From contig CBDDLR010000001.1 of assembly GCA_965230765.1 (NCBI GenBank), forward strand, positions 2,696,515-2,760,514: 64,000 nucleotides of DNA, read 5' to 3'. Below, in pieces: positions 1,986 to 61,476 of this stretch. Every line of letters starts with the position of its first letter. The stretch's first letter is position 1. The notes beneath the pieces were generated by a model. It ran no database searches. It was not told the origin of the DNA and was given only the letters and a program-made list of their open reading frames with translations. The translations under genes were made by a program, and so were the position numbers. The stretch is from Sunxiuqinia sp. Lineage in GTDB: Bacteria; Bacteroidota; Bacteroidia; Bacteroidales; Prolixibacteraceae.

Positions 1986-2050
1986 TGGCAAAAATTGCAC
2001 TCTTGGGTAAATTTTGGTTTGTGCATCGGCTCGTGAAACTTGCTAGTGTA
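1986..2050. repeat. Defence-associated 9-25-9 repeat, copy a (degenerate), upstream of hsdR
   Basis: TGGCAAAAATTGCACTCTTGGGTAAATTTTGGTTTGTGCATCGGCTCGTGAAACTTGCTAGTGT aligns with copies at 36489, 41622, 61424. Confidence 0.6.
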
Positions 2051-2215
2051 TGCCTTGTACGTAAAACAATCAGTTTTTTACATAGGGGCATTCTTGTTTT
2101 AGTTTGGACAAGTTAATAAAATACCACTTAAGTGCAAAGGGGTATGTGCTAAGCGAAAAGTTTATCTATAACCCGAACCCCGCAACTAGTATCACTTCTT
2201 TTTCATCACTTTTTA

Positions 2216-2223
2216 TATCTTTG
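2216..2223 (+). promoter_or_regulatory. Bacteroidota sigma-A -7 element of recG
   Basis: TATCTTTG matches TAnnTTTG, 4 nt before the recG ATG. Confidence 0.55.
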
Positions 2224-2227
2224 TTTT

Positions 2228-4327
2228 ATGCCCGAATACCTTGATCAGGAAATAACCTATTTGGCTGGGGTTGGCCCCAAACGCGCAGAACTATTGGCAA
2301 AGGAGTTGCGCATTTTTACATTTAGGGATTTACTTTATTATTTTCCATACAAATACATCGACCGCACAAAATTTCATAAAATTTCTGAAGTGAATGCCAA
2401 TCAGGCCTATATTCAGGTAAAAGGAAAAATACGCACATTTGAAGTGCATGGTGAGCGCAACAAACAACGCTTGTCTGCCGTGTTTTATGATGAAACAGGT
2501 TCAATGGATTTGGTTTGGTTTAAGGGCGTAAAATACATTCGGGAAAGCCTTTCGCTGGAGAAAACCTTTGTTGCTTTTGGCAAGCCTTCGGTTTTTAACG
2601 GGCGGGTGAATATAATTCATCCCGAAATGGAGAACGAACACAGCGAGCAGTTTAAAACGGGTGTGTTGCAGGCTTTTTACAACACAACAGAGCTGCTGAA
2701 AAAACGGTTCCTGAATTCAAGGGCAATCAACAAGCTACAGTTTGCATTGGCCAATTCAATTCAGGGGAAAATTTATGAAACACTTCCAAAGCATGTGAGG
2801 GAGCCACTGAAACTGATGGATCTGCCCCAGGCTTTGCAACAAATCCATTTCCCTGAAAACACACGATTGCTGCAAAAGGCAAACTTCCGTCTAAAATTTG
2901 ATGAACTATTCTACATACAACTGAAAATACTTAGCTTAAAGCATAAACGATATGGTGCTTTTAAGGGATTTGTGTTTTCAGAAGTGGGCTACAACTTTAA
3001 TAAGTTTTACACGGACAACTTACCCTTTGAGCTTACCAATGCACAGAAAAAAGTGATTAGGGAAATACGAAAGGATTTAGGTTCTGCCAAACAAATGAAC
3101 CGGTTGTTGCAAGGCGATGTGGGCAGTGGCAAAACAATGGTGGCACTAATGGTTGCGCTGATTGCTTTTGACAATGGCTATCAGGTAAGCCTGATGGCAC
3201 CTACTGAGATTTTGGCCATTCAACATTTTAATACCATCCGGAAAATGGCTCAGGGGCTGGGATTAAAGATGGCCTTATTGACAGGCTCTACTAAAGCCAG
3301 TGAGCGGAAAGTTATCCACGAGCAATTGCAGAACGGCGATTTGCAGCTACTGGTGGGCACTCATGCACTAATAGAAGATACGGTTGGTTTCAAAAAGTTG
3401 GGGCTGGTGGTTATTGATGAGCAGCACCGTTTTGGGGTGGCACAGCGTGCAAAGCTTTGGAAGAAAAATGTAGGTGTACCACCGCATGTGTTGGTCATGA
3501 CGGCCACACCAATTCCCCGCACACTGGCAATGACGCTTTATGGCGACCTGGATGTTTCCGTGATTGATGAATTGCCGCCAGGAAGAAAACCCATTGAAAC
3601 GAAACACTTCTACGAGAACCGTCGCAAGCAGGTTTATGAGTTTATCCGGAAACAGGTAGATAGTGGCAGGCAGGTTTACATGGTTTATCCATTGATTAGC
3701 GAATCGGAAAAGCTTGACTTGAAAAACCTTGAGGATGGCTATGAATTGATGAAAGAAGTTTTTCCACGATATAAAATTAGCATGGTTCATGGCCGGATGA
3801 AACCTGCAGAGAAAGAAGCAGAGATGCAGCTTTTTAAGGAAGGGAAAACTCAAATTATGGTTGCCACAACTGTGATAGAGGTAGGTGTTGACGTACCCAA
3901 TGCTTCGGTGATGGTGATTGAGAGTGCCGAACGTTTTGGTTTATCGCAACTACACCAGCTTCGTGGACGGGTTGGTCGGGGGGCAGAGCAGTCCTACTGC
4001 CTGCTGATGTCTTCGTATAAAATTAGCAACGAAAGCAGAAAGCGTTTGGAGACCATGGTACGCACCAACGATGGCTTTGAAATAGCGGAAGTAGACTTGC
4101 AACTGCGTGGCCCGGGTGATATTGAAGGTACACAGCAAAGTGGCTTGGGCGTTGAACTAAAAATTGCGAACCTTGGAAAAGACGGCGAAATACTTCGAAT
4201 AGCACGTGATATTGCCAACGATATTCTCAATGATGATCCGCGACTTGAAAAAGAAGAGAATAAACTATTGATCTATCATCTTTCAAAAATGAAAAATACG
4301 GAGTTTAATTGGAGCGTAATTAGCTAA
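2228..4327 (+). CDS. recG: ATP-dependent DNA helicase RecG
   Basis: 699 aa; LLQGDVGSGKT, VVIDEQHRFG, MTATPIPRTL, QLHQLRGRVGRG. Confidence 0.97.
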   Translation: MPEYLDQEITYLAGVGPKRAELLAKELRIFTFRDLLYYFPYKYIDRTKFHKISEVNANQAYIQVKGKIRTFEVHGERNKQRLSAVFYDETGSMDLVWFKGVKYIRESLSLEKTFVAFGKPSVFNGRVNIIHPEMENEHSEQFKTGVLQAFYNTTELLKKRFLNSRAINKLQFALANSIQGKIYETLPKHVREPLKLMDLPQALQQIHFPENTRLLQKANFRLKFDELFYIQLKILSLKHKRYGAFKGFVFSEVGYNFNKFYTDNLPFELTNAQKKVIREIRKDLGSAKQMNRLLQGDVGSGKTMVALMVALIAFDNGYQVSLMAPTEILAIQHFNTIRKMAQGLGLKMALLTGSTKASERKVIHEQLQNGDLQLLVGTHALIEDTVGFKKLGLVVIDEQHRFGVAQRAKLWKKNVGVPPHVLVMTATPIPRTLAMTLYGDLDVSVIDELPPGRKPIETKHFYENRRKQVYEFIRKQVDSGRQVYMVYPLISESEKLDLKNLEDGYELMKEVFPRYKISMVHGRMKPAEKEAEMQLFKEGKTQIMVATTVIEVGVDVPNASVMVIESAERFGLSQLHQLRGRVGRGAEQSYCLLMSSYKISNESRKRLETMVRTNDGFEIAEVDLQLRGPGDIEGTQQSGLGVELKIANLGKDGEILRIARDIANDILNDDPRLEKEENKLLIYHLSKMKNTEFNWSVIS

Positions 4328-4359
4328 CTTTGTTACCAATAACCTAAAACCAACTTAAC

Positions 4360-5265
4360 ATGAAAAAGTTAACTTTTCTCTTATTATTTTCTATTGTGCT
4401 TAGCACATCTGTTTTTGCTAAGAAGTACAGACTTTTTTATTTGGGAGGTCAGTCGAATATGGACGGTTATGGCTATGTAAAAGAACTACCTGATTCGTTG
4501 AAAGCAGGATTTGAAAATGTCATGATTTTCCATGTTCAGATAACCAATGATGGAGAAGAGGTTAATGACAAAGGAATCTGGGCAAAATTAAAACCAGGTC
4601 ATGGTGTTGACTTTAAGTGTGATGGCTCGAAAAATATTTACGGTAAGCGATTTGGGCTTGAATTGAGTTTTGCAGATCGTATACAAAAGCTATTTCCCGG
4701 CGAAGCAATTGCTCTGGTAAAATATTCAAGAGGTGGTAGCTCAATTGATCTGAATGCATATAATTACGGAACATGGGATCCAGATTATTCCAAAAAGAAC
4801 GGTGTAAATCAGTATGATCATTTTCTGGCTACGATTAATGCAGCATTCAGCGTAGGGGATATTGATGGTGATGGGGAAGAAGATGAGCTAATTCCAACCG
4901 GGATATTGTGGATGCAGGGCGAGAGTGATGCAACCAAATATGAAACTTCAATGAAATACGGGTATAACCTGAAGCGATTAATGGATTTAATACGTGCCAG
5001 CCTGCGAAAAGATGATTTACCACTGGTAATCGGTCGGATTTCGGATAGCCAGAGTCACCATGCAGATAGCTTGATTTGGGAATATGGGAATGTTGTTCGT
5101 GCAGCTCAGCATAGTTTTGTTGAAAATGACCCGGCTGCTGCTATTGTTACTTCAACCGATAATTATGGCTATTCGGACAAATGGCACTACGATTCCGCAG
5201 GGTATATTGATCTGGGATTTCAGTTTGCTGAAAAAATGGCAAAGCTCGTCAATAAGAAAGAGTAA
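4360..5265 (+). CDS. Sialate O-acetylesterase (SASA / CE6-like SGNH esterase), secreted
   Basis: Signal peptide; GGQSNMDG, WMQGESDA, D-x-x-H (DKWHY). Confidence 0.8.
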   Translation: MKKLTFLLLFSIVLSTSVFAKKYRLFYLGGQSNMDGYGYVKELPDSLKAGFENVMIFHVQITNDGEEVNDKGIWAKLKPGHGVDFKCDGSKNIYGKRFGLELSFADRIQKLFPGEAIALVKYSRGGSSIDLNAYNYGTWDPDYSKKNGVNQYDHFLATINAAFSVGDIDGDGEEDELIPTGILWMQGESDATKYETSMKYGYNLKRLMDLIRASLRKDDLPLVIGRISDSQSHHADSLIWEYGNVVRAAQHSFVENDPAAAIVTSTDNYGYSDKWHYDSAGYIDLGFQFAEKMAKLVNKKE

Positions 5266-5314
5266 GAAACTGAATGTCTTACTCGGAGTGAGACCCTCAA
5301 TTTTTGCATCAATA

Positions 5315-6058
5315 TTATTCTACTTTCACCAAAAGTGTCCCACCCAGGTTTTCATTGCCGGTGTGCTCAATGATTATCCAAGCCTGCTTCTTCAATTGCC
5401 TGCGGAGCATATGGTTTAAATAGCCGTGTGCAACCAGCAAAACCTTCCCATTTTCTGAGGCTTTTTTCTCAAGGAATTGAGCTGCAGATATTGCCCGTCG
5501 ATGGGCCATGGCGCGGTTCTCTGTGGTTGATTTGGGTTTCGATCCCATCATCCAGAAAACCCGGTTTAAACCACTCCAAATTGGCTTTGGAAGATAGAGT
5601 AAGGGAATGTTTACAGTTCCTGGTTTTGTTTCATTAAAGATCGGATTTGCCTGGTAAACAAAACCGTCTCCAAGCAAGTTGCGGGCAGTTGTTTTTGCAC
5701 GATGGAGCTTACTGGTGAAAACCGTGTCAATTCCTTCTGCATTCAATACAAACTTTTGTGTAACCGGGTAAACATTGTTCGTGTCGTAATCCGATTTGTA
5801 CTTTTCAAGCTTCTTGTAGTTGTAAAAGAATTTCTTTTCAATATCAACCTTTTGGTGCCTGACCAGCATGATTTGCTTTATCTGGCCAGTGTTGCTTAAA
5901 TAAGGTGCAGAATCATTTAAAAAATGAAGTTGAAAATGATTTCCCGTTTTGATATTGCTTTCTTGCTGATAAACCTTAATCAGAAAGTCCTTCAGCTCAG
6001 CGGGTTGAGCTAAACAAATAACCGGACAAAAGAGTATGGCGATAAGCAGCTGTTTCAA
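5315..6058 (-). CDS. Secreted histidine-phosphatase superfamily protein
   Basis: Signal peptide; LVRHQ, TSKLHRAKTTA, FNE, LLVAHGYLN resemble the phosphoglycerate-mutase-like fold. Confidence 0.65.
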   Translation of the reverse strand: MKQLLIAILFCPVICLAQPAELKDFLIKVYQQESNIKTGNHFQLHFLNDSAPYLSNTGQIKQIMLVRHQKVDIEKKFFYNYKKLEKYKSDYDTNNVYPVTQKFVLNAEGIDTVFTSKLHRAKTTARNLLGDGFVYQANPIFNETKPGTVNIPLLYLPKPIWSGLNRVFWMMGSKPKSTTENRAMAHRRAISAAQFLEKKASENGKVLLVAHGYLNHMLRRQLKKQAWIIIEHTGNENLGGTLLVKVE

Positions 6059-9000: not shown

Positions 9001-9678
9001 ATTCTTAAAGTTAAAATTTCCTCCATGAAAACCTTCATTTACCGCGGGGTGATGCCCAAAAAGGAGTACATTTTTGTCCTGGTATTTTTTTAAAAGATCG
9101 GAGAAATAGACATATGCATTTCGTTGCAGGTCTCTTATGCTAACAGCATCATCAAAGTCGTGATTAATCCTTGTAACATCAATATTCTGTTGTAACCAAA
9201 ACTGTGTGTTAACGAAAATCAAGACGGTATTGTCATTCAACTCTTCCACGATGGGACCAGGCTGTGCATCATCGGGTATATATTTCACGTGTTTTTTAAA
9301 TCGTTTCTTGAATACCTTCTCAATCTCGTTTACCACATCCTGCCCAGTTTGCCTTCCGTTGTCCCATTCATGGTTTCCTGGCAAAAAATAGGTTTGAACT
9401 TCCTTATTTGCAATGAAATCGAGAAAAAACTCAGGGATATGGGTTTGGTAGTTTAACTCATCTGTTTCGAGATTGTAATCAATTTTACCTGAATAATTTC
9501 CAAGAAAAATCAATGAAGCATTTTCAGATTCAACCTTTTTTTGAAGTTCTTGAAAAATCTGGTCGGTAAATTGTGTTTTTTCTACGTTTCCAACCACATA
9601 AAAAACTGAACTATTTTGAGCGATAATAGAGGGGAGGTATAAAAACTGTAAAATCAGTAAAAGGTAGATTTGCTTCAT
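6055..9678 (-). CDS. Secreted metallophosphoesterase-like + kinase-like + Omp85/BamA-type barrel fusion protein
   Basis: 1207 aa; signal peptide; PGNHEW, GHHP, SGHE; central DWDRHDDQW; C-terminal RGYRASRFAGE, FHDVGRVW, GYGGGIW, terminal LNFNFLF. Confidence 0.7.
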   Translation of the reverse strand: MKQIYLLLILQFLYLPSIIAQNSSVFYVVGNVEKTQFTDQIFQELQKKVESENASLIFLGNYSGKIDYNLETDELNYQTHIPEFFLDFIANKEVQTYFLPGNHEWDNGRQTGQDVVNEIEKVFKKRFKKHVKYIPDDAQPGPIVEELNDNTVLIFVNTQFWLQQNIDVTRINHDFDDAVSIRDLQRNAYVYFSDLLKKYQDKNVLLFGHHPAVNEGFHGGNFNFKNNFFPLAGNSGFYLPLPGFLYYTPRKMLGGVQDINHPQYKEMSYGLKNMLSVYKNVLYVSGHEKNFQLNQMGMSNQVIAGAVAKPFKNNKVDVALPGFTRLKLNEGNIVEVDYFSLENNHLSSAYNKTINLKPSHFLAEKDNEENYSDSIVHTDISEQYLKGKFTRFLMGDNYRQVWATESTFPVFDIEKEKGGLKILKRGGGQQTQSYRLQNDNKKQYVLRSVDKNAEGALPAALRGTFAVDIIQDGISASHPYGAIVVPELAEAARIYHTNPKIFYVPDDPALGIYRQEMKNKLFLFEERPAKNRDDVASFGFSKKVVSTPDVLEAIVEDDEAVIDQKFVLRNRLFDMWIADWDRHDDQWRWASFKKDGKTIYRPIPRDRDNAFFNSDGAIYKIVELSWVQPKFQGFEPATKNIEGFNFNGRYFDRTFLNELTKEDWISVAKDLQERLTDDVIDNTVNTSLPKEINELSGGRIKDVLKSRRAHLVDFANDYHLFLNNGVDIVGTEDEDLFQIKRFNDSTRIDVFSWSPKKEKVKNHLYGRTFVNNETGEIRLYGLGDGDQFKLEGNANKGLKLRLVGGKGKDKYVDNSNVKSGGKKTLIYDRFGKSEITRGKETALRLRESKDVYAYNRKLFKYNTTMPLVAFGYNVDDGVLLGGGFLNSRYHFRDSTMHQFTGKTSFLTGAFQANYKMFTTSFWRNFDLFMDVNISMPFTTDNFFGYGNNTENLLEDKKDYRIRYKVLDINPSIAWIHNKEALLKTGVRFLHTDLEETKDHKLFETIQNNPTPAVPGDLFDRRQYVSANASLDYKKLDNKLYPTRGYTISAEAGHFFGVNDFEDFTQIKGHIATYLSFRKDPRMVLALQAGGQKNFGDFPLFEAARLGQKTNLRGYRASRFAGESSVYQNTDLRLRVTSVRSYIFNGSLGLLAFHDVGRVWFDGDDSDSWHQGYGGGIWFAPFYFTNLSLQYEHSKEEDLITLNFNFLF

Positions 9679-10868
9679 AATAAATTGGTAAGTTGAACAA
9701 CAATAATGCTAATGACAAAAGTGATCAATCCAAACATAAACGTATTGTAGGCAGTACGAATACGGTTGTATTTTGTTGCCAGCACTACGCCCAGGCTATA
9801 TTGATCCCTGATCATGGTGTTGTAGAGCCCGTCGTAATCTTTCATTACTTCCTTTAGTGCCCATTCGTATTCTTCGTATTTCATTCCATAAAAATTGCCA
9901 AAAAACATCAGGTTCACTTTTTTATTCCTGATGTCTTCTTTCGTGAATTTTCCTTTTGATAGTTTTGGACGGGTTGCCAGTATGGCAAAAATAATGGTTA
10001 CAAGTGAAGTTGATAAAATGATTAACATGGGCACAAGCATGCTCGGATTTTGGGCAATAATTCGTTGCACAAATGAAGCAAGAACTGAAATGATAATTGA
10101 ATTAACAGTGATAAGGATGTTTGCTTTGTTATCTGCAATTGAACTCAGGTTGATCTGGCTTCTGGCGGTATTCCTAAACATGGATTCAATGCCTCGCTCG
10201 GGCGAGTGCTGCTTAGCAAGCTTTTGCTCCAGTTTCGCAATCTTTTTTTGTTGCGTTTCAATAATCTTCTTGCTGTTGTCTTTCGTATTGGCCATGCTTT
10301 TTATTGCCTCGTAGTTTTGGCTTTTGCCAGGGGTGAATTCATTTTTTGCATAATCAGTAAAATAATCTTGATCTTCCATAAACGATAGGGTTTTTTTACA
10401 AAAGAATTTCTTCTTGACATCGACCTTATTAATTGCTGATATCTCCTGGCGTAGGTTTTCGCTTTTTACTAAAAAATCATTATTGCGCATATGCGCCATG
10501 TCAGCATCACACAAAACTTTCGAAAGTTCATCGGTCGGTTTTTGTGGGAACCGGGTGGCTTCAATACAGTTTTCAACCTTTTTTATTTTTTCTTCCGGAT
10601 AGGAATGCTTTTCCAGAAATTCACGGGCTAATTTTTGGCTGTGAGCTTCATGATCGGTGTAATTTAACGAGTAACCAGCATCATGGAACCAGGCTGCAAT
10701 CAACACAATTTCTATATCTTCTTCCGATAATTGCAAGTTTGATGCGATTTCCCTGCTTATTTCAACAACTTCTGAAGTGTGGTTAAGGTTGTGGTATTTA
10801 TATACTTCTGGATCGATTTTCGTTAAGATTCCTTCAACCTCTGCTTTCGCTTGCTCTATTATAGACAT
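9675..10868 (-). CDS. HD-domain phosphohydrolase fused to Pycsar-effector-type (PycTM/DUF5706) membrane domain
   Basis: YHNLNHT...AAWFHDAG...LCDAD (HD); RGIESMFR...LSSIADNKANILITVNSIIIS plus three TM helices. Confidence 0.8.
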   Translation of the reverse strand: MSIIEQAKAEVEGILTKIDPEVYKYHNLNHTSEVVEISREIASNLQLSEEDIEIVLIAAWFHDAGYSLNYTDHEAHSQKLAREFLEKHSYPEEKIKKVENCIEATRFPQKPTDELSKVLCDADMAHMRNNDFLVKSENLRQEISAINKVDVKKKFFCKKTLSFMEDQDYFTDYAKNEFTPGKSQNYEAIKSMANTKDNSKKIIETQQKKIAKLEQKLAKQHSPERGIESMFRNTARSQINLSSIADNKANILITVNSIIISVLASFVQRIIAQNPSMLVPMLIILSTSLVTIIFAILATRPKLSKGKFTKEDIRNKKVNLMFFGNFYGMKYEEYEWALKEVMKDYDGLYNTMIRDQYSLGVVLATKYNRIRTAYNTFMFGLITFVISIIVVQLTNLL

Positions 10869-29483: not shown

Positions 29484-29559
29484 AGTTTAACTTTTTAGTT
29501 TATTAATAGTATCTTTCCTATATTATATCATAGTTCCCAAAAATCTTTCTTACCTAATT

Positions 29560-36252: not shown

Positions 36253-36271
36253 TTTTTTCGTCTTTTTTATG

Positions 36272-36403
36272 TGGTAACGGTAAATTGTATGTGGCGTAGC
36301 GGATTACGTGATTCTTTTCTGTCAAGATAGCATTGAAGTACGGGCGAGTGACAAACCTTAAAATACCCGCAAAACCCGCTATGACATATACAAAATGTTA
36401 CCT
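36272..36403 (-). repeat. attC-like site 6 (family B)
   Basis: GTGGTAAC(36278)...G(36397)TTACCTGC. Confidence 0.8.
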
Positions 36404-36488
36404 GCTGGGTTTAGTCTTTCCATTCATAGGACTTCATAATTTTCAATTTTAGCACTATCCCGATTTTGTTTTTCGGGTCGGCAAAAAA

Positions 36489-36560
36489 GCGATGGAAGAC
36501 AGGCAAGCTCTTTTGCAATTTTTGGTTTGTGCGTCTGCTTGTGCGAATTGCAAATGTGCT
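36489..36560. repeat. Defence-associated 9-25-9 repeat, copy b
   Basis: Arms TTTGCAATT (36512-20) and AATTGCAAA (36546-54), 25 nt spacer. Confidence 0.75.
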
Positions 36561-36616
36561 TGGCTGTGTGGGCTGGCTTAATTTATTAATGTGCAATATG
36601 TGCAATTATTGTGCAA

Positions 36617-37942
36617 TCAACTATTTTTAATAACGTAATAAGCTCCAGCTCCCTTTTGTCCACTACTTTCCAATAATTCTTTATTCACTAACTCAGTAAG
36701 GTCATTACTTGCAGTGTTTCTTGAGCAATCATTTATACTCTGATATTCACTATTCGTAATCTTACCTTTTTCTTTGACGTATTTCAAAGCTTCAATTTGC
36801 CTCGGGTTTAATCCAAGAGATTCAAAATACTCAACGTTGAAATTATCTTTCCTAAACTCCACCCAAAAACCCGACATGTCGTAATAATATTTGGGCTGGG
36901 GAATGCCAAACTGAATACATTCGTTAATAATTTTAATCGTTCCTCTTCCCCAGGATTCGATATACCCACTTCTAAAAAGAGCATTTGCAATGTCCGGATT
37001 GTAGGGTTTTGATGGATGTTTAGTCAACAATTTCTCAATTGTCCAGTTTTCAGGTAACTGTCCCTCATTCCAGAAAATCAACTTGTCGTTATAAACGCTG
37101 ATTTGGATTGGTACACCACCAGAATAATCTTTATGGCAAACAGCATTTAATAGTGCTTCACGAACAGCATTTTTTGGATATTCAAACTTTTCAATCCTGT
37201 TTAAGCCTTCATAGCTAATTGATGATTTGATGTATTTGGAGAAAAGTAAATCCATAGTTTTCTCAACCTGTTCAAAAATATTTCCCGTAATTTCATCCTG
37301 AAATTTCAATTCATCATCGGTCTCGAAATATCCAATTTTAATAAATGCACCAGTAATGTATTTTGTTGGTTTGGGATGAAACAATAGAATTGCAGCTCGT
37401 TTCAGGTAATCATTTTCAATCAACTGCAAATTGTCCGCCAAATCTTCGTCCGTATCTGTTAAAACATCATCTTCAATTCGCTGCGCTTTAACCGCTTTTT
37501 TTCTGAAAAAATCAAAAGTTTCATTCTTTAAATCGGCAATTGAAATATTTGGAACAGGAACACCATCCCACTTTTTTCCTTTGCGCTCCAACATAAATTT
37601 ATCGAGAGATGCTCCTTTTAATTCTTGTTTTGTGCTACCACTCCGATAATGATATTGTCCTTTGTAGTTTACTGGGTTTGGATAAGGTTCTACAATTATT
37701 TCAATAAACTGCTTTTCATTTTCGCCCAATAAATTTATGTCGCAAACAACACCTAAGTTGGTAACAATTTTATTGGGTAGGTTATCCATCAATCTTTTAG
37801 CATTGTCAATGCCAACAACTTCACCTTTGTCGTTTTTGCCGATGTAGATTTTGCCTCCTTGTGCATTTGCAAAACCGCAAATCCATTTAAGGTATTCATC
37901 GCGCCAGCTTTCTTTCCACTCTATGTTTTGACTTTCTGCCAT
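36617..37942 (-). CDS. Schlafen/AlbA_2 + HATPase_c_4 + winged-HTH protein
   Basis: ESQNIEWK, CGFANAQGGKIYIG, VREALLNAVCHKDY, NPDIANALFRSGYIESWGRG, C-terminal HTH. Confidence 0.85.
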   Translation of the reverse strand: MAESQNIEWKESWRDEYLKWICGFANAQGGKIYIGKNDKGEVVGIDNAKRLMDNLPNKIVTNLGVVCDINLLGENEKQFIEIIVEPYPNPVNYKGQYHYRSGSTKQELKGASLDKFMLERKGKKWDGVPVPNISIADLKNETFDFFRKKAVKAQRIEDDVLTDTDEDLADNLQLIENDYLKRAAILLFHPKPTKYITGAFIKIGYFETDDELKFQDEITGNIFEQVEKTMDLLFSKYIKSSISYEGLNRIEKFEYPKNAVREALLNAVCHKDYSGGVPIQISVYNDKLIFWNEGQLPENWTIEKLLTKHPSKPYNPDIANALFRSGYIESWGRGTIKIINECIQFGIPQPKYYYDMSGFWVEFRKDNFNVEYFESLGLNPRQIEALKYVKEKGKITNSEYQSINDCSRNTASNDLTELVNKELLESSGQKGAGAYYVIKNS

Positions 37943-37945
37943 TAA

Positions 37946-39406
37946 TTAACAAACATTAAAAATTTTGGCTCTTTCGTATTCCTTAATATTTGAAATCGCC
38001 TGCCTGTTTTGAATTTTCTCCATTGAGCGAGCTACTTTAGTACTTTCCTTATCGCTAAAACCAAGGAATTTGTTTATTACTTTCAATTCATTCTTGCTTT
38101 TAATATTCATCAAGAAAGCAGTTTCACACATGCTTGAAAAATCGAATGAAGGTTGATTAAACTCTTCAATACCTTGAGATAATAATACTACAGATACTCC
38201 TTTTGAACGGATTTCGCGCAAAATCTTTTCAAGTATTTCTTTTGATTTTTTGTCTTTGAAAACGTTATGAGCTTCATCTATTATTAAAACATACCTCATT
38301 CCTTTCATATCATTTTCAACAACAGAATTTTCCATATTCATGAAAGTGTTGTAAATGTAATTTATAATTAGGAATGCGGCTGTAAACCGAACATTTCGAC
38401 TCAAATCGCCGGATAAACTTAAATAATAGTTTTGATTTAAAAATGAACCATCAGAGTTCGTGTCGAACAAATTAATTTCGCTTAAACCAATTAATATTTC
38501 GGTTAGAGTGCTGGGCTTGTCTCCAGCAATCTCATAAACGTTATTGAGAATTTCTTTTAAAGTTGGGTATTTTCCACTATGATGATTGTCAAAAGCTTGT
38601 TTTGTTGCTTCTTTTAAATGTTGAACCTGAACCTTTCCCAACCCCGCATAATCCGTAATAATATCGACAAATTTATTTATGCCCAATATCTTATTGTTAG
38701 CATTGATATTATCTATAAACGACAGTGGATTAACAGGGAATGGCTTATGCGGCGTATCAATCAAATTTGCTTGTGTATTTCTAAAGAAATTTTTGAATTC
38801 ATTGCTTTCTTTTTCCGATTCGCTAATTCCTTTAAAATCGAGGAAAATGAAGTTTGTTCGGAAATTACTTGCTTCAACGATTCGTTCTAAAAGTCTTTGG
38901 GCAAAATAGGTTTTACCAGAACCGGATTGTCCAGCAACTGCTATGTGAGCATTGCTATACAAGATTGTGTCATTTGGCGTGAAGTAAATATCTTTTCCTT
39001 CATCGTCCTTGCCAACCAGTAATTTCCAAGGATTACAAGACAATGTTTTTTCGATATTTTGACTGTAATTATCAACATGTTCTAATCCGACAATGGCGTT
39101 TTCAAGCTCGGAAATACCACTATCAATACTGTCAATTAGAAAGTCGAATCCTGAATAATTTGCATTGTCCTCAAACAGTTTATTAATGTGTTCCAAGCCG
39201 TGGTCAACATGCATTTTTACGAACTTTCCAATATCTGTATTTGATTTGTGAAAACTATAATGCTGGCAAATTAATGCAATGTAGTAATCTTTGTATTTCC
39301 CAAAAAAAGTATCATCCTTGTAAGATTTCCCTTTTGAATCTTTCAGGTTTTGAGTGATGGAAAAGCTGCTCAAATGAGTATTTATATGTTGGCTGCGCAG
39401 ATTCAT
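37946..39406 (-). CDS. DndE-like domain fused to HerA/FtsK-type ATPase (N-terminus possibly truncated)
   Basis: DSKGKSYKDD...YIALICQHY...MHVDHGLE (DndE-like, from memory); AGQSGSGKT, FLDFKG, IIDEAH. Confidence 0.65.
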   Translation of the reverse strand: MNLRSQHINTHLSSFSITQNLKDSKGKSYKDDTFFGKYKDYYIALICQHYSFHKSNTDIGKFVKMHVDHGLEHINKLFEDNANYSGFDFLIDSIDSGISELENAIVGLEHVDNYSQNIEKTLSCNPWKLLVGKDDEGKDIYFTPNDTILYSNAHIAVAGQSGSGKTYFAQRLLERIVEASNFRTNFIFLDFKGISESEKESNEFKNFFRNTQANLIDTPHKPFPVNPLSFIDNINANNKILGINKFVDIITDYAGLGKVQVQHLKEATKQAFDNHHSGKYPTLKEILNNVYEIAGDKPSTLTEILIGLSEINLFDTNSDGSFLNQNYYLSLSGDLSRNVRFTAAFLIINYIYNTFMNMENSVVENDMKGMRYVLIIDEAHNVFKDKKSKEILEKILREIRSKGVSVVLLSQGIEEFNQPSFDFSSMCETAFLMNIKSKNELKVINKFLGFSDKESTKVARSMEKIQNRQAISNIKEYERAKIFNVC

Positions 39407-40368
39407 CCTTTAAAAATATTAAAGTTATGCCAACGGATATTTTCTACAGAAGGATAAAACTTTTCTTCGGCAGGCAATTGAATTTGTTTTCCTCGAAACT
39501 GAGTTAGTGAATAATCAGTTTTGTTTTCGCTAAATTTTGTTGAAATAAGTACATTAAAATTTTCATCTATTGATAATAAACCTCTGTCAAAAGCTCTGTG
39601 GAGATTGGGACAAAGTGCTAATCCATTTGATATTGTGTCGTTATTACTTTCAGAAAATGGAACAATATGACAAGCATCAATCATTGAAATATTAACTACA
39701 CTGTCAATTCTTAATTCTGAAATACAACATGTGTAATTATATATTTTAGGAATCTCGCGTTTAAAAACATTGCTCCGAATAAATATTTCTTCCTGGTATG
39801 ATTCTTCTTTTAATTCTTTTCTAAGTTCTAAAAGTCTTTTTGAATAAACTTCTGAATCTTCGTTTGCAATTTGATTTTCAATATCATTCAAATATGAATT
39901 ATGTCCGTAATTACCTTTTGTTTCATGAAAGTAAGAATCTAAAACAAATTGTTTTGCAATCTGGTTGTTTTCAGGAATAAGAAGTAATTCAAATAATTCG
40001 TTGTCAATCAATGCATATTTTACGGCTGTTGTGATATTTTGCAGACTTCTCATCGAACTTTTTGATTTTACCCAAATCTCACAACCTTTATTTGGAACAA
40101 GTTTCCAAAACGGTTCTGAATTCATATGATAATAAGGTAAAGCAAAGAGGCATTGATGGTTTGATGTTACCAAACTATTCCAGTTTGATTTGAAAAGTCC
40201 TACAAATTCAGGAGAAATGGAAATCTTATTGTTTGAGAACAGACCGTTTCTAATTCCTTGAAAAAGGCTCAATAACAAAATCGGTTTATGAGGAGCACCT
40301 CCATTTTTATAGTCTCGCCTGAGTTTCTCAAAACGGTTCAAATAATATTTTAAATTTTTATTCTTCAA
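39403..40368 (-). CDS. SBD-HNH endonuclease (putative phosphorothioate-dependent type IV restriction enzyme)
   Basis: APHKPILLL and LPYYHM (sulfur-binding-domain-like); ACHIVPF...NGLALCPNLHRAFDRG (HNH); TTG start. Confidence 0.75.
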   Translation of the reverse strand: MKNKNLKYYLNRFEKLRRDYKNGGAPHKPILLLSLFQGIRNGLFSNNKISISPEFVGLFKSNWNSLVTSNHQCLFALPYYHMNSEPFWKLVPNKGCEIWVKSKSSMRSLQNITTAVKYALIDNELFELLLIPENNQIAKQFVLDSYFHETKGNYGHNSYLNDIENQIANEDSEVYSKRLLELRKELKEESYQEEIFIRSNVFKREIPKIYNYTCCISELRIDSVVNISMIDACHIVPFSESNNDTISNGLALCPNLHRAFDRGLLSIDENFNVLISTKFSENKTDYSLTQFRGKQIQLPAEEKFYPSVENIRWHNFNIFKG

Positions 40369-40377
40369 TTTTGTTAT

Positions 40378-41577
40378 TTAAGCTGCTTTCAACATTACAT
40401 CTTCTTTATCCTGACGTTCAGTTTTATTCTTCATATCAAGTTCGATGTTAAACACTTCGTTATATATTTGGGATACTTTTTTGTCAAAAAATAAATCTCT
40501 TGTCCAAATTACCTGAATTGCAATAAGTTCTTGATTGGTAATTAATTCAACGTGAGGTTTGTCTTCTTGAATAATTTTTTGTGTTTCAAGCACTCGCTTC
40601 AAAATATTGGCTCTGTACGTTGGTTTGTACGTGCCCATTTCATTGATTGCTTTGGTGCCATCACGCCGAGTAGGCATTCTAATTTCAATATTATTTCTTT
40701 CCGATTCCAAATCATCTCGTAATTTCAACAATGGTTTAAGCCAATCAAAACCATTGTTAATTAGTGCAGCCATCGACTTATCAACTTTAACAACAGTACA
40801 AGTCCAGCAACCAAATCGGCTCTGTCCGCACGATGAATGTTCTTTATTTGTAACTAAAGTTGGACATTCATAATCGTCTGAACTTGCATCTGCATAAATT
40901 TGAAAAAGCTCAGAATTGTCAGCCCCCCAAGGAGAAGGGTGAGAATTTATGATTCCCCAAATTTCTTCAAGCATCAAATGTTTAATTGGAGAATAAACAA
41001 AAGTGTTTGCTTGTAACGAATGTTTTGTAAGCCGTTTCCCACGAATTTCGTGCTTTTTAATAGACTTAGCTCTTGAAGCACTTTCCGCAGAACGTGTCCC
41101 AATTAAAATGATTGCTTCTCCATTTTCAGCAACTTGCTCATTAATGTATCGTGATGTTGGTTTAATTTTTAATTTGTCGGTACACCAACGGAAAGCATTA
41201 TTCGGAACCGGGTAACCTTTTCCAATAATGTTTACCCAAAATGAATCTTCTAACCTTGGAATCGTTTTTCTGACAAATATTGGCAAATCATTTTCCCTTG
41301 CTGCTTTGCTAATTTTATTTAGAACTCGTTCGGTATATTCTACGATTATTGGATTTTCAACTAAAGTGTCGTTGCATACTACATAAACTGGTCTTTTGAG
41401 TTGAAAAGGATTTGGCATTTTTCTGATTTTTAAAAGTGCCTCCCAAACCAGAGTTAATAATACTGTCGAATCTTTTCCTCCACTAAAACCTATTATCCAA
41501 GGTTTTTCTGTGTCGTCAGCATAACAGTATTGGTCGATTATTTCGTTTATTATATGTTCAATTCTTTTATTTCTCAT
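40378..41577 (-). CDS. dndC: DNA phosphorothioation sulfurtransferase DndC (PAPS-reductase fold), C-terminus possibly shortened
   Basis: WIIGFSGGKDST, NDTLVENP, FRWCTDKLKIKPT, SCGQSRFGCWTCTVVKVDKSM. Confidence 0.85.
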   Translation of the reverse strand: MRNKRIEHIINEIIDQYCYADDTEKPWIIGFSGGKDSTVLLTLVWEALLKIRKMPNPFQLKRPVYVVCNDTLVENPIIVEYTERVLNKISKAARENDLPIFVRKTIPRLEDSFWVNIIGKGYPVPNNAFRWCTDKLKIKPTSRYINEQVAENGEAIILIGTRSAESASRAKSIKKHEIRGKRLTKHSLQANTFVYSPIKHLMLEEIWGIINSHPSPWGADNSELFQIYADASSDDYECPTLVTNKEHSSCGQSRFGCWTCTVVKVDKSMAALINNGFDWLKPLLKLRDDLESERNNIEIRMPTRRDGTKAINEMGTYKPTYRANILKRVLETQKIIQEDKPHVELITNQELIAIQVIWTRDLFFDKKVSQIYNEVFNIELDMKNKTERQDKEDVMLKAA

Positions 41578-41621
41578 TTATTTCATCTTGAAAACCCAAA
41601 AATAACAAATTATGCCATGGA

Positions 41622-41694
41622 GCGATGGCAAAATTGCAGCTCTTTTGCAAAGCTTTGGATTGTGTGCCGGCTTGTGCGGCTTTGCAAATGTGCT
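41622..41694. repeat. Defence-associated 9-25-9 repeat, copy c
   Basis: Arms TTTGCAAAGC (41644-53) and GCTTTGCAAA (41679-88), 25 nt spacer. Confidence 0.75.
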
Positions 41695-41839
41695 GCAATG
41701 TAGGCGGGATTTCCCAAACTGCCCCATAGGGCAGAAGCGCGTGGGCAAAACAAAATCTTCATCGAAGCTGTCAATTTTCTTTTTTTATTGGTTTAGTTAG
41801 TCTCTTATTTCTGGTTCTTTTTCTTCAATTTAACCTTGC

Positions 41840-41972
41840 AGGTAACGTTCAGTTGTATGTGGTCTGGCGGGATTTCGTGCAGAAATCCTGTCAGACCGGT
41901 AGGAGAGTAGCCGGAAGGTTTGACGTGTCAAACCGATAAGTACCCCGCCTGCCATATTACAATTTGTTATGT
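41840..41972 (-). repeat. attC-like site 7 (family A)
   Basis: GCAGGTAAC(41846)...G(41966)TTATGTGC. Confidence 0.85.
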
Positions 41973-41979
41973 GCTGTAT

Positions 41980-42405
41980 TTATTCTTTTTTTGATTCAAT
42001 TTTTATAGGAATATTGTATTCTGGTATATAGTCACATTTAATATCCGTTTTAACTATTTCTATCGGTCCAATGTTTTTGATTATTTCAGTCATGTTATTT
42101 TCAAGGAATTTAAAATTTCCTAGTTTATTCTCTAATCGTATTTCAATACTGTCTCCTTCATCTATGTTTGAGTAAAGTTTGGCAAATTTTATTCTAAAAT
42201 CTCTCAAATTTAATCTTACAGTATCACAACTAGCTGGAATTAACATTTTGCCGTAATAGTTTCCTCTAAGCGTTATTGGATTGATTTTATTTGCATTTTT
42301 TAAGTTATAGCAAGGGATTAATGGGGTTATAATCTCTTCGTTAACCTGGCAAAATGCATTTAAGTTTGAAAAAACTATTGATATTATTATAACAAATTTT
42401 ATCAT
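41980..42405 (-). CDS. Hypothetical secreted protein (cassette)
   Basis: 141 aa with signal peptide. Confidence 0.6.
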   Translation of the reverse strand: MIKFVIIISIVFSNLNAFCQVNEEIITPLIPCYNLKNANKINPITLRGNYYGKMLIPASCDTVRLNLRDFRIKFAKLYSNIDEGDSIEIRLENKLGNFKFLENNMTEIIKNIGPIEIVKTDIKCDYIPEYNIPIKIESKKE

Positions 42406-57951: not shown

Positions 57952-57968
57952 AGCGATTTTTTATGTTT

Positions 57969-59051: not shown

Positions 59052-59070
59052 GTTCTTCTTTTAAATTGCT

Positions 59071-59203
59071 ACATAACGGCCGCGGATATGTTGCGGCGGG
59101 GTTTTATTTGCACTAAAGTTTCATATATTTTTTAAAATTATGTATTGTATTGTTAAAATCAAATAGCACCAAACACCCCGCTGAAATATAAACGATGTTA
59201 TGG
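59071..59203 (-). repeat. attC-like site 22 (family D, same as site 10)
   Basis: GCTACATAAC(59077)...G(59197)TTATGGTTA. Confidence 0.82.
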
Positions 59204-59610
59204 TTAGGCAGGGCAATACGGGCGTGCTCAGTCATTGTAACAAAACCAGCCTGGCAGTTTGTTTGCCCCTCCCAAGTGATGTGCCAAGTTTGCAAAACCA
59301 GTTGTTGCTTACCGCTGTCCCTGTTTGGTGTTGTTTGCCTTTCCTTAATTTACATATCTTTAAGCAACAATACCTGTCCCAGGTTACCCGTTCAGGTAGG
59401 GGCAAACATGGCGCAGGAGTTGATTAACCGCAAACAAGGTGACAGGCTGTAGATGCTTTTGGGCGTGATTTTATGAAAATTGCTTTCCAATGACCACTAG
59501 TCAGGTAGATGTATTACCTGAAACTATGTTCCACTTTCACAAGTGCCATTTACAAAAACCAAGCTTTTAAAGAACGCTTTTTTTAATAAACTGAAATGCT
59601 TAACCATAAC
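59198..59610. other. ORF-less cassette cargo X
   Basis: Near-identical to 44675-45078; flanks GTTATGGTTA / TAACCATAAC. Confidence 0.7.
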
Positions 59611-59735
59611 GGTCACTTGTATGTGGTCGGGCGGGATTTCGTGCAGAAATCCAGTCAGACCGGTAGGAGAGTAGCCGGAAGGTTTGACTTGTCAAACCGA
59701 TAAAAGCCCCGCCTGCCATATACAATTTGTTAACC
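59604..59735 (-). repeat. attC-like site 23 (family A)
   Basis: TAACCATAAC(59610)...G(59729)TTAACCAC. Confidence 0.85.
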
Positions 59736-59743
59736 ACTGATTT

Positions 59744-60358
59744 TTAATATTTTTCTTTTCTTTCAAATTTGTCGTTTTGTGTCAAGTAATGAATTGCAAT
59801 TATTAGCCTGACTTTTGGGTCTTTGATGTTATAATTTTTATAATTCTTAATTAAGTCTCCTACCATTGTAGGTGAAATATCTCCTGCGATTTCGAGAGAG
59901 TTGTAATAATTGTTAATTACACTGTCTTGTTGCCCTAATGACTTTAAAAACTCCACGTATTTGCCTTGCCGATTTAATTGAATGTATTTCAATGAGTCAT
60001 TCGAGTCAGGTTTAGTCAACCAGCTAATTGTCCAAATATTATCAAATGTCTTTTTGTCGAGTTGATTATACATTCCCTTTTGGTCGTTGAAATTAATCGA
60101 TAGTTTAAAGTCTGACATTTTTTCAATGTCGGAGTTTTGCAGAAAAAAGTCTGTGTACACTTTTTCCAAATTATCTTGTTTATCACTCTCCGTCAAACCA
60201 ATACTTTTGTCAAAGAAACTTTGGATTTTTGTTAAGTCATTAATTTCAGTTGTATTAAACGACTCTTTGATTGTTAGGTCATTTGATAAGTCGTTTTGTC
60301 TTTGAGTAGTGCAACTGAGTGCAATAATCATGGTTGAAATCAGAAATAAATTTTTCAT
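59744..60358 (-). CDS. Hypothetical lipoprotein (cassette)
   Basis: MKNLFLISTMIIALSC lipobox. Confidence 0.65.
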   Translation of the reverse strand: MKNLFLISTMIIALSCTTQRQNDLSNDLTIKESFNTTEINDLTKIQSFFDKSIGLTESDKQDNLEKVYTDFFLQNSDIEKMSDFKLSINFNDQKGMYNQLDKKTFDNIWTISWLTKPDSNDSLKYIQLNRQGKYVEFLKSLGQQDSVINNYYNSLEIAGDISPTMVGDLIKNYKNYNIKDPKVRLIIAIHYLTQNDKFERKEKY

Positions 60359-60380
60359 TTGGCGTCAATTTTAAATTTGT

Positions 60381-60513
60381 GGTTAACGGTCACTTGTAAG
60401 TTGTCGTTGCGGATTTCGGTGAGCGTCAGCGTCCGGTAGGACCTGACTGCGATGCGAGAATCCGGCGAACAACACACCACGAACCCCGCAATGCAATTTA
60501 CAATTTGTTAGCA
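60381..60513 (-). repeat. attC-like site 24 (family C)
   Basis: GTGGTTAAC(60387)...G(60507)TTAGCAATT. Confidence 0.82.
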
Positions 60514-60520
60514 ATTGTTT

Positions 60521-61234
60521 TTATTTAATTTGTTGTCCACCTATATATTTTACGGAATCGAGTTTTATAAACTCAAATATCCCATTGTTGTATATTTGAA
60601 TTTTTGCAAATAATGTGTCAATCTCAAAACTGGTTGAATCATCGTTTAAACTTTCGTCATTGAATTGAGCCTTGTTAATTTTGAAAATACTATCATTTTC
60701 CCAGTAACCTGTGTCATTTTCACTCCAACCACCGTCACCTCCGGTAAGCCCAAAAACAGCTATGTTTATTGGTGTTAAATTCTCTTTACTCAATGAAACA
60801 CCATAAACAGTATTGCAACAATATTCATTTGCATGTATGAATGAAAAGAAATGAAAGTTTGAAAATTCCTTATGTTGATAAAACCTGAATTCTTCTGGGT
60901 ATTTTACTCCTAGTTTATCTGTCCAGCCAAATTTTATATCTTGCTCTTTTACATACTTCTCAAGGAACTCAACAGGAATTTTTTGGAGATCGTAAATATT
61001 TAAGTTCTCAATATTAAATGAATCACTCATTAGTATCGTTGAGTTTTTTATATAGTTCCAGTCGTATGTTTTACTTGAATTATTTGGCTTTTTTTTCACA
61101 ACAATCTCAAATCCATCTTCAACGGGAATAATTTCTCCTGTTCTTATCGTTTCGCCATTTAGTTTAATCGATTTATTCTGAGTATAACCAATAAGAAAAG
61201 AACCTAATAATAGTAATGTCAAAATAATTTTCAT
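60521..61234 (-). CDS. Hypothetical secreted protein (cassette)
   Basis: Probable start MKIILTLLLL at 61234; the track's upstream extension lies inside the attC. Confidence 0.6.
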   Translation of the reverse strand: MKIILTLLLLGSFLIGYTQNKSIKLNGETIRTGEIIPVEDGFEIVVKKKPNNSSKTYDWNYIKNSTILMSDSFNIENLNIYDLQKIPVEFLEKYVKEQDIKFGWTDKLGVKYPEEFRFYQHKEFSNFHFFSFIHANEYCCNTVYGVSLSKENLTPINIAVFGLTGGDGGWSENDTGYWENDSIFKINKAQFNDESLNDDSTSFEIDTLFAKIQIYNNGIFEFIKLDSVKYIGGQQIK

Positions 61235-61254
61235 ACTTCTGTTTTTAAAATAAT

Positions 61255-61376
61255 TGCTAACGGTTGGTACATGTTGCGGAGCGGATTTCGGAGTGATTTT
61301 CCGTCCGATAGGATGGAAAATTGATGCGAGAGCCGCAGTTACAAACCGCACCACCCCCGCTCTGAAAATGTTGTGT
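61255..61376 (-). repeat. attC-like site 25 (family C, about 10 nt short)
   Basis: AATTGCTAAC(61261)...G(61370)TTGTGTGCC. Confidence 0.65.
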
Positions 61377-61423
61377 GCCCGTGCTTTGTCTTCGTAGTCA
61401 GTCTGTGCGAGGGACTAGCCATA

Positions 61424-61476
61424 CTCTTTGGCAAGTTTTGGATTGCGTGATGGCTTGTGCGACTTGCCAATGTGTA
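61424..61476. repeat. Defence-associated 9-25-9 repeat, copy d
   Basis: Arms TTGGCAAGT (61428-36) and ACTTGCCAA (61462-70), 25 nt spacer. Confidence 0.72.

Follow-up and report, generated by a model that had tools for sequence, protein, structure and literature searches.

What are the short palindromic repeats that stand beside the defence genes of Sunxiuqinia sp.? In a window of 64,000 nucleotides from this genome (G000), the initial annotation had described four co-oriented copies (a to d) of ~55-70 bp, and had proposed a recombination site or structured element specific to defence modules. All four were recovered on the plus strand at the positions it had reported, and their neighbours were confirmed as hsdR (copy a), an AlbA_2/HATPase_c_4 gene (b), a PAPS-reductase (DndC-like) gene (c) and an Eco57I/N6 methylase gene (d); on its other side, copy a has the housekeeping gene recG. 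The 23-nt core TTTGGWTTGYG-N5-GCTYGTG matches the window four times with no mismatch (expected 0.01 from 100 shuffles), and the rest of the 4.06 Mb genome has zero occurrences. With a covariance model, at least ten copies were found in the genome, all on the same strand, together with one decayed relic, so that four was an undercount. Six of these copies lie beyond the window, in the same attC array further along and on contig 2.

In copies b, c and d, the arms are perfect, specific to each copy and complementary, the loop is 25 nt in each, and the DNA folds at -14 to -20 kcal/mol with z of -3.7 to -4.9 (copy b, -18 kcal/mol, z -4.9; copy c, -19.7 kcal/mol, z -4.5). The arms of copy a are degenerate, as had been claimed, and give no fold (z = +1.1). 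The earlier size was too short: the element spans ~80-110 nt and consists of an outer covarying stem, a T:T/C-G/T:T internal loop, a 9-10 bp inner stem (~20 bp of stem in total), the ~25-nt loop and a conserved, TGTGCGTTGGCT-like tail. The loop is G+T-rich (79% G+T on the element strand) and holds two GGYTTGTGCG units, and a TGTGCG-TTGG motif recurs in the leader, the loop (twice) and the tail. The arm covariation persists in a larger alignment of ~150 copies, where 98.7% of stem cells pair, against 18-44% in slid controls, and double changes occur in nine of the 13 stem pairs, with 91 compensated cells. This strong covariation supports a structured element under selection for pairing, as the initial annotation had suggested.

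The copies stand at the two ends of cargo operons, and we refer to them as brackets. Integron attC sites carry the R''/R' cores RYYYAAC ... GTTRRRY with the crossover at G|TT, and there is one per cassette, at its 3' boundary. The features of the locus are as follows.

C1:2692062-2692149, left of the window: decayed 3' partner of copy a, directly after the hsdM stop codon
1988..2068, plus strand: copy a, a degenerate 5'-type bracket (R1 covariance model, 75.5 bits), in the recG/hsdR divergent intergenic region, 5' of an hsdR-hsdS-hsdM operon that runs leftwards and exits the window
36269..36411, plus strand: attC of the Dnd-like cassette, 85 nt outside copy b (R2 attC model, 110 bits)
36496..36578, plus strand: copy b, 3'-type bracket of the Dnd-like/HNH/HerA-like/AlbA_2 cassette (91.5 bits), with an upstream extension from ~36440 that is kept in G005, G017 and Sunxiuqinia
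36617..41577, minus strand: cargo of cassette 1, four genes (PAPS-reductase-like, HNH_2, DndE/HerA-like ATPase and AlbA_2-HATPase_c_4; Pfam)
41597..41632, minus strand: promoter of the cassette 1 cargo as predicted from the sequence, with -33 TTTG at 41632-41629, at the foot of hairpin c, and -7 TATTTTTG at 41604-41597, 20 nt upstream of the ATG (41577)
41628..41710, plus strand: copy c, 5'-type bracket of cassette 1 (87.2 bits), with a downstream extension to ~41770 that is kept at five other loci
41837..41980, plus strand: attC of the adjacent cassette (R2, 141 bits), on the outer side of copy c at a distance of 127 nt
61252..61384, plus strand: attC of the type II restriction-modification cassette (R2, 61 bits), on the outer side of copy d at a distance of 28 nt
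61412..61494, plus strand: copy d, 3'-type bracket (88.2 bits)
61493..64000, minus strand: cargo of cassette 2 (Pfam), an Eco57I/N6 methylase (ORF 61493-63004, its stop TAG at 61493-61495 overlapping the tail end of copy d), a 304-aa protein and an HTH protein
Window-equivalent 64305-64383 (C1:2760819-2760897), past the window end: 5'-type bracket of cassette 2 (R1, 48.2 bits)

Each bracketed unit is one whole integron cassette. Read in gene sense, it starts with the crossover G|TT, followed by 14-176 nt, the 5' bracket, the promoter and the cargo operon, and ends with the 3' bracket, 20-150 nt and its own attC. Because of this linear order, the brackets of a circular cassette stand immediately on either side of attC, and the three elements make up a conserved non-coding platform, ~0.4-0.6 kb long. 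All 83 attC matches are adjacent to brackets and co-oriented with them. Nearly every bracket in Prolixibacteraceae-like genomes, Flavobacteriia, Ignavibacteria and Balneolales has an attC on its outer side, at 14-176 nt, and the adjacency extends to distant classes and phyla. The copies and relic of the Sunxiuqinia genome are almost totally confined to attC arrays; among the sequences examined, there were no brackets away from cassettes and no empty platform, hybrid hairpin or solo copy. Brackets are carried by the largest, multi-gene cassettes, while most cassettes of the same arrays have none.

The brackets resemble attC in being imperfect hairpins with conserved mismatches, in which structure is conserved and stem sequence varies, in their location in cassettes, in their common orientation along the array and in apparently folding on the bottom strand. 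The 3'-type outer stem conserves a purine:purine mismatch, and wobble pairs number 32-33 G:T against 11 A:C on the element strand, in both forms of the element, an asymmetry of only ~3:1 among copies that are not phylogenetically independent. The strand so favoured is the attC bottom strand, given the established cassette polarity. However, brackets have neither RYYYAAC/GTTRRRY cores nor extrahelical bases, are conserved in the loop and tail instead of the stem base, and lie inside the cassette, in a 5' and a 3' form, rather than at the G|TT crossover. With no AAC/GTT cores at conserved positions and two internal sites per cassette, we rejected their identity with attC. The earlier distinction between the two families therefore holds: the attC and bracket models match different places, and crossovers map to neighbouring true attC sites, not to brackets.

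The brackets also keep a fixed relation to the genes. Bracket pairs enclose opposite-strand operons at ~20 loci, and ORFs within 3 kb of brackets are antisense in 239 cases and sense in 14. In ~40 of 80 3' copies, the tail ends within 2 nt of a stop codon (-2 to +2). The 5' bracket is followed by a T-run and then by a predicted Bacteroidota-type promoter motif, and 13 of 40 5'-type copies have a strict TAnnTTTG at 30-49 nt from the anchor, against 0-1 of 54 3'-type copies. We infer that the -33 element of the cargo promoter comes from the 5' bracket.

Three comparisons show an attC-plus-bracket platform of 83-100% identity, unrelated cargo and sharp breaks, homology ending at the cargo-facing edge of each bracket. 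Between cassettes of G000 and G005, attC and both brackets are 80-90% identical and the R''/R' extension boxes are identical, with unrelated cargo. In G013, platform halves of 83-100% identity stand beside unrelated cargo, and identity is 50-60% past the bracket edge. The converse was also observed, namely cargo of 95% identity with different 5' hairpin stems. Such breakpoints fit a possible role in module exchange. The proposal of a recombination site or structured element is borne out in part: breaks fall exactly at bracket edges, but no recombinase or nuclease is consistently linked to brackets among the genomes compared, and the expected tie to one particular recombinase did not appear. 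In 61 genomes, an IntI-like gene and brackets occur together in 32, the element only in 9, IntI only in 5 and neither in 15; G022 has 10 bracket copies with no IntI-like match, and G050 has 10 with no Y1_Tnp match.

Bracketed cargo is mostly defence across genomes, and the bracketed modules examined in G000 agree with a defence-only neighbourhood. However, relatives carry RND efflux (AcrB/OEP/HlyD), cation efflux, beta-lactamase and K+/Na+ transport genes, so that the specificity is for large integron cassettes and not, as first thought, for defence.

Covariance-model matches occur in 41 of 61 genomes of the same order and in 33 of 150 high-quality genomes sampled phylum-wide, and an exact 22-nt signature is present on over 119 contigs, among them contigs of Ignavibacteria, Calditrichaceae and Balneolales. 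The brackets are thus a widespread family of Bacteroidota and neighbouring phyla (FCB group). An Rfam scan of the window returned nothing at the gathering threshold, with chance matches only (E of at least 1.4) around copies b and c, and the literature yielded no paper describing a matching element. The family is previously undescribed.

Two known kinds of repeat offer partial parallels. REP/BIME (RAYT) elements are likewise short imperfect palindromes between genes, but they reach hundreds of copies per genome against 10 for the brackets, which occur within cassettes only, possess a long conserved loop and lack a GTAG head; with nearly all copies in attC arrays, we rejected this assignment. 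The brackets behave neither as a genome-wide REP nor as an ordinary terminator, and none of the refuting outcomes named in the initial annotation arose. In the pdif (Xer) modules of Acinetobacter plasmids, short sites also bracket exchangeable accessory modules; pdif sites, however, are 28 bp long with a 6-bp spacer and inverted, whereas brackets are hairpins of 80-110 nt in direct orientation.

Our best guess, with a probability of about 0.4, is that the brackets are bottom-strand DNA hairpins that serve as joints for cargo loading or exchange. The hairpins would fold on the bottom strand, the same strand as folded attC, and operons would be loaded into, or swapped within, the attC-bearing platform at these joints, either by a putative structure-specific enzyme or by template switching at the hairpins. 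It is tempting to speculate further that 3' bracket, attC and 5' bracket make up a cassette-building device, in which operons enter at the hairpin feet via a structure-specific activity, although we consider this more specific version unlikely; such an activity might reside in a host enzyme or in the extra N-terminal domain of the FCB-type integrase. Against hairpin joints, the gene-relative orientation and operon-end placement would also suit a transcriptional element, and homologous recombination between conserved parts could yield sharp breakpoints.

The main alternative, although somewhat doubtful, is a transcriptional insulator: the hairpins would act at the level of RNA or transcription, by terminating or processing transcripts or by loading Rho. 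They would protect a self-promoted cargo operon from array read-through and prevent transcription from entering attC, and homologous recombination between the conserved parts would exchange cargo only incidentally. The fixed orientation (239:14) suits this role, as do the position of the 3' copy about one ribosome footprint past the stop codon, the succession of 5' copy, T-run and predicted promoter, a loop and tail that are C+A-rich and G-poor on the gene strand, and the presence of brackets on the largest multi-gene cassettes, which would need expression of their own. Like intrinsic terminators and T7-type RNase III hairpins, brackets lie at operon ends and have two stems with an internal loop, and a T-run follows the 5' form as in intrinsic terminators. 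However, there is no U-tract in the 3' form, the wobble pairs point to the strand antisense to the genes (32:11), and the gene strand has a pyrimidine:pyrimidine mismatch in place of the conserved purine:purine pair. The 5' hairpin is absent from the cargo mRNA because it lies upstream of the promoter, core genes of these genomes end in ordinary hairpin-plus-T-run terminators, and a terminator would not need a 25-nt loop, an internal loop and a tail that all stay conserved from phylum to phylum; nor were brackets found away from cassettes. A stem of ~20 bp, a loop of 25 nt and a 3' form with no gene-strand T-run at its foot do not describe an intrinsic terminator. The same wobble asymmetry, together with the conserved loop sequence, would favour a small or antisense regulatory RNA from the element strand, which we regard as extremely unlikely: that strand has no Bacteroidota promoter motif upstream, Rfam gave no match, neighbouring genes are nearly all on the other strand, and the paired 5'/3' architecture would be left unexplained.

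If the hairpins act on DNA, they could instead be accessory sites for integron recombination. Placed next to attC and on its single strand, these arm-like or folding-helper structures would promote efficient recombination of long cassettes when bound by the FCB-type integrase, with its extra N-terminal domain of ~80 aa, or by a host factor. The adjacency and co-orientation of nearly every bracket with an attC, folding favoured on the attC bottom strand, the TGTGCG-TTGG repeats in leader, loop and tail, and the co-occurrence of IntI with brackets point in this direction, and IntI-like proteins are confidently predicted to have an extra N-terminal alpha/beta domain (pLDDT ~90). Lambda attP arm-type sites, used by heterobivalent tyrosine recombinases, similarly flank a core site as short repeated motifs. 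Their bracket counterparts, however, are embedded in covarying hairpins, integrase binding is putative, and most attC sites and cassettes of the same arrays go without brackets. The N-terminal domain has no significant structural match (best, a HARP domain, E = 0.3), and G022 has bracketed cassettes with no IntI-like match. We consider this reading improbable. Ends of non-autonomous single-strand transposons (IS200/IS605 or IS91, HUH), moving defence passengers independently of the integron, are very unlikely. Brackets share with IS200/IS605 subterminal hairpins and PATEs the co-oriented hairpins on one strand at both ends, the conserved mismatches and a single-strand logic; an IS200-like tnpA lies within two bracketed cargos (the hsd operon and G005:C3:1373330), and IS91-like elements lie near modules in G004 and G024. 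Yet bracket hairpins stay with the flanking attC platform and not with mobile cargo, the units are bounded by attC and not by a target-site (tetranucleotide) signature, and G050 has its 10 brackets with no Y1 transposase. These findings speak against an IS200/IS605 element or PATE. Nor does IS91 or rolling-circle transposition apply: the ends of the IS91-like elements differ in sequence from the bracket and lie at variable distances (50-1965 nt), and G000 gave no Y2_Tnp match, although control genomes likewise gave none.

How integron cassettes originate from genes is an old open question, and a sharper one for multi-gene defence cassettes. In several phyla, the joints between an attC platform and unrelated cargo operons coincide exactly with a conserved structured element, and the cassette-origin question therefore becomes experimentally approachable with defined DNA sites. 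If true, a cassette-building device would offer a testable route to multi-gene cassettes, especially defence systems. Our analysis shows that large defence-carrying attC arrays are a common feature of Bacteroidota and related phyla, where integrons were rare according to IntegronFinder 2.0 (PMC9024848). With the covariance-model signatures obtained, one for the bracket and one for the FCB-type attC, genomes and metagenomes can be mined for new defence and resistance modules.

All four copies of the element described in the initial annotation are present on the + strand of the window, which covers positions 2696515–2760514 of contig 1. Each is a bracket, a covarying hairpin element of ~80–110 nt that occurs in a 5′ and a 3′ form at the cargo ends of large integron cassettes.

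Brackets in the window
1988, + strand: copy a, 5′ form, without a fold
36496, + strand: copy b, 3′ form
41628, + strand: copy c, 5′ form
61412, + strand: copy d, 3′ form

A 23-nt core has 4 exact matches (0 mismatch) in the window, compared with 0.01 expected from shuffles, and no further occurrence in the 4.06 Mb, two-contig genome. As claimed, the inverted arms of copies b, c and d are perfect, differ between copies yet stay complementary, and enclose exactly 25 nt; the arms of copy a are indeed degenerate. While the hairpin with its 25-nt loop stands, folding gives a longer element than the one first described.

Parts of the bracket
Leader motif: GCG(A/T)TGG-type; related motif ahead of the hairpin
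Outer stem: 5–9 bp, also covarying (folding)
Internal loop: conserved, a C-G pair with a T:T mismatch on each side (folding)
Inner stem: 9–10 bp (folding)
Loop: ~25 nt, 79% G+T, two GGYTTGTGCG units
Tail: TGTGCGTTGGCT-like

The 5′ form is consistently distinguished from the 3′ form by its leader and outer stem. Between the copy b tail and the neighbouring AlbA_2 stop codon (window 36583–36625), TGTGCAAT occurs in three tandem copies with a period of 11 nt, similar to the 3′ outer arm of one 5′-bracket subtype.

A covariance model of the bracket was run against the genome and its relatives, and further copies were found in the latter. The genome holds 10 copies, every one on the + strand: four in the window, one just beyond its end (equivalent to position 64305), four further along contig 1 (C1) and one on contig 2 (C2), where there is an additional weak second match. 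Left of the window, a decayed relic lies behind the hsdM stop codon. Among 49 copies from relatives, which are not phylogenetically independent, pairing is kept in 98.7% of cells, compared with 18–44% in slid controls; 9 of 13 pairs show two-sided changes, with 91 compensated cells. Explicit pairing of 146 copies gave 32–33 G:T wobbles against 11 A:C in both forms, and revealed a conserved purine:purine mismatch in the outer stem of about half of them. True copies score 87–91 bits on the proper strand and 12–14 bits on the opposite one.

The placement of the brackets relative to genes is equally regular. At ~20 loci, co-oriented pairs surround operons of 1–9 genes over 3–11 kb, and the bracketed genes always lie on the strand opposite to the brackets. 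Across 80 diverse loci, mechanical ORF calls from the first ATG gave 239 antisense and 14 sense ORFs within 3 kb of copies. The 3′ form adjoins the last stop codon, which falls between −2 and +2 relative to the tail end in ~40 of 80 cases, copy d included, and 17–100 nt separate the 5′ form from the start codon. The 5′ form alone is followed, 30–49 nt from the anchor, by a strict −7 box of the Bacteroidota type (TAnnTTTG), and a TTTG at the 5′ hairpin foot is positioned as a −33 box. This arrangement would place the 5′ hairpin immediately upstream of the cargo promoter, so that transcription from the predicted promoter, assigned by motif only, would start beyond the hairpin and leave it out of the cargo mRNA. 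A promoter entirely within the hairpin was ruled out, since its TTTG is spaced only 11 nt from the −7 motif.

Brackets accompany attC sites. An attC-like array of >70 sites extends over ~165 kb from window position 29557 to C1:2891044, the end of contig 1, and a second one (C2:1086883–1110623, ~24 kb) follows the gene of an IntI-like tyrosine recombinase co-oriented with the cassettes. Integrons have been reported to be rare in Bacteroidetes (IntegronFinder 2.0, PMC9024848). At same-order loci, 83 of 83 matches of an attC model are co-oriented with the brackets; an attC lies outside the 3′ form by 19–150 nt and outside the 5′ form mostly by 14–176 nt. The same arrangement is found with attC matches in Flavobacteriia, Ignavibacteria and Balneolales; on contig 2, an attC likewise adjoins the 3′ bracket of a small RhuM module.

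Integrase gene of the second array
C2:1083423–1084562 (L055:3424–4563): IntI-like recombinase, 379 aa

Close homologues of this protein in Draconibacterium and other Prolixibacteraceae are named site-specific tyrosine recombinase/integron integrase. It carries an extra N-terminal alpha/beta domain of ~80 aa with a predicted pLDDT of ~90 and without a Pfam match; its predicted fold has no significant match in the PDB, the best being the SMARCAL1 HARP domain (E = 0.3). IntI and brackets co-occur with odds of ~10, a value that ignores relatedness, and there are exceptions to the association.

A cassette shared with a relative (G005) settles the cassette polarity. Identity rises from 65–75% to 95–97% at G|TTATGCCC and remains high over the ORF and the downstream attC until CCG|TT, which indicates that cassettes are canonical on the gene strand, with an ORF followed by its own attC. 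This profile overturned a reversed polarity that had been read from a homology break at G|TTACCT between this genome and another relative, G017. Comparison of duplicated cassettes is uninformative on polarity, as different cassettes have nearly identical type I attC bodies. The strand of best bracket pairing is thus the attC bottom strand. Taken with the attC placement, the polarity makes a bracketed module one whole cassette, and in the circular cassette the 3′ bracket, attC and 5′ bracket form one contiguous non-coding platform. The bracketed cassettes of the window measure 5.6 and 3.2 kb, compared with a median of ~0.9 kb; a search of its other cassettes with filters off found no bracket, weak relic or empty shell.

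Two other sites were observed. A canonical terminator is separated from the decayed hsd 3′ bracket by a palindrome, TGTTATAACA (C1:2692010–2692030; L051:12011–12031), that may be a collapsed attC remnant. In two congeneric 2.2 Mb genomes, different bracketed cassettes occupy the same position, flanked by aroA and a 256-aa gene (L177, G129:C1:1785000–1804000; L178, G149:C1:303000–322000), with a common chromosomal end junction G|TTATAAAAA; the site resembles a small cassette hotspot that lacks an integrase.

Comparison of related cassettes locates the boundaries between platform and cargo. The Dnd-like cassette of the window (cargo at 36617–41577) and a G005 cassette have attC bodies, both brackets and extensions in common at 80–90% identity, with identical R″/R′ extension boxes, and their cargo has no detectable similarity, that of G005 encoding a metallophosphoesterase, an ORC/CDC6-like ATPase, an unknown protein and a Dam-type methylase. 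The similarity stops directly after the 3′ tail and at the 5′ hairpin foot. Within another genome, G013, platform halves are 83–100% identical next to unrelated cargo, and identity drops to 50–60% exactly at the cargo-facing bracket edge. In two loci from Flavobacteriales, cargo and leader are ~95% identical, yet the 5′ hairpin stems differ by compensatory changes. Together, these breaks show that platform and cargo have repeatedly been separated at the bracket edges in evolution. The G017 homology (88%; window 36396–36411, L042:5107) leaves out the body of the cassette's own attC and sets in precisely at G|TTACCT, on its R″ side. In a Cellulophaga/Brumimicrobium comparison, homology likewise breaks ~20 nt from the attC, and these two cases indicate that cargo with its 3′ bracket can be joined to different attC bodies.

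To analyze the distribution of the bracket, we searched genome samples that are partial, so that absences apply to the genomes searched: 41 of 61 same-order genomes (1–21 copies each) and 33 of 150 high-quality genomes across the phylum have matches. The exact signature CTCTTTTGCAA-N24-40-TTGCAAATGTG occurs on >119 contigs, from Flavobacteriales, Bacteroidales/Marinilabiliales, Chitinophagales, Cytophagales and Saprospiraceae as well as Ignavibacteria, Calditrichaceae and Balneolales. BLAST returned no match in phages and two in plasmids, both unannotated, of Persicobacter and Adhaeribacter. Rfam contains no matching family at gathering or permissive thresholds, and a full-text literature search with conserved 11-mers and integron, Bacteroidota and hairpin topics found no description.

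Bracketed cargo examined in this genome
Type I restriction-modification operon
Dnd-like/HNH/HerA-like/AlbA_2 set
Two type II restriction-modification pairs
TOTE-type primase-helicase, IrrE-like peptidase and AlbA_2 protein
RhuM

In relatives, 63 cargo proteins include type II/IIG restriction-modification, Gabija, DRT, MADS, Lamassu, BREX BrxC, SIR2-Argonaute-associated and Wadjet-like proteins, together with AcrB/OEP/HlyD, cation efflux and beta-lactamase. Further cargo comprises NurA-HerA with a methylase, a DISARM-like set, an RND pump and ion transporters. The proposed restriction to defence modules is not borne out by efflux, beta-lactamase, RND pump and ion transporter cargo; this mixture makes the bracket cassette-specific and defence-enriched, not defence-specific. 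An AlbA_2/HATPase_c_4 gene of 441–442 aa closes the cargo next to the 3′ bracket of three modules that otherwise differ (window 36617–37942; C1:2768459–2769787; L042:5326–6651), the G017 copy having 88% DNA identity to that of the window. In the core region, an HD-PycTM fusion gene (window 9675–10868) lies upstream of a 1207-aa phosphoesterase/Omp85-like gene, with no cyclase gene adjacent to the fusion.

No enzyme is consistently linked to the bracket. An IS91-like Y2 transposase with a tyrosine recombinase, an IS110 element of G005 and IS200-like Y1 transposases were rejected as partners, as none of them tracks it.

IS91-family elements (tyrosine recombinase and Y2 transposase) inserted in the G004 and G024 arrays
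L032:828–2850, co-oriented with brackets
L033:3460–4611, co-oriented with brackets
L046:12041–14069, co-oriented with brackets

They lie at variable distances from brackets and have a distinct hairpin end of their own. An IS200-like Y1 transposase gene (154 aa, C1:2693758–2694222) lies between hsdS and hsdM of the bracketed type I module left of the window, and in G005 another Y1 gene opens the cargo behind a 5′ bracket (C3:1373330).

From the observed structure, placement, attC linkage and breakpoints, we infer how the brackets act. The main rival to the reading that we favour, a transcriptional insulator, would account for the fixed orientation, the adjoining stop codon, the T-run and the promoter. 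The strand asymmetry, a 3′ form without a U-tract and the elaborate conserved loop are poorly explained by an insulator, which we consider somewhat less likely. Accessory sites for the integrase are possible, as the IntI-like proteins have a confidently predicted extra N-terminal domain, which however lacks a significant structural match. It is tempting to speculate instead that the brackets are DNA hairpins formed on the attC bottom strand that act as joints for the loading or exchange of cargo (probability about 0.4). The wobble asymmetry favours such DNA joints, as do the conserved mismatches and loop, which suggest protein recognition, the exclusive association with attC and the breakpoints at bracket edges.
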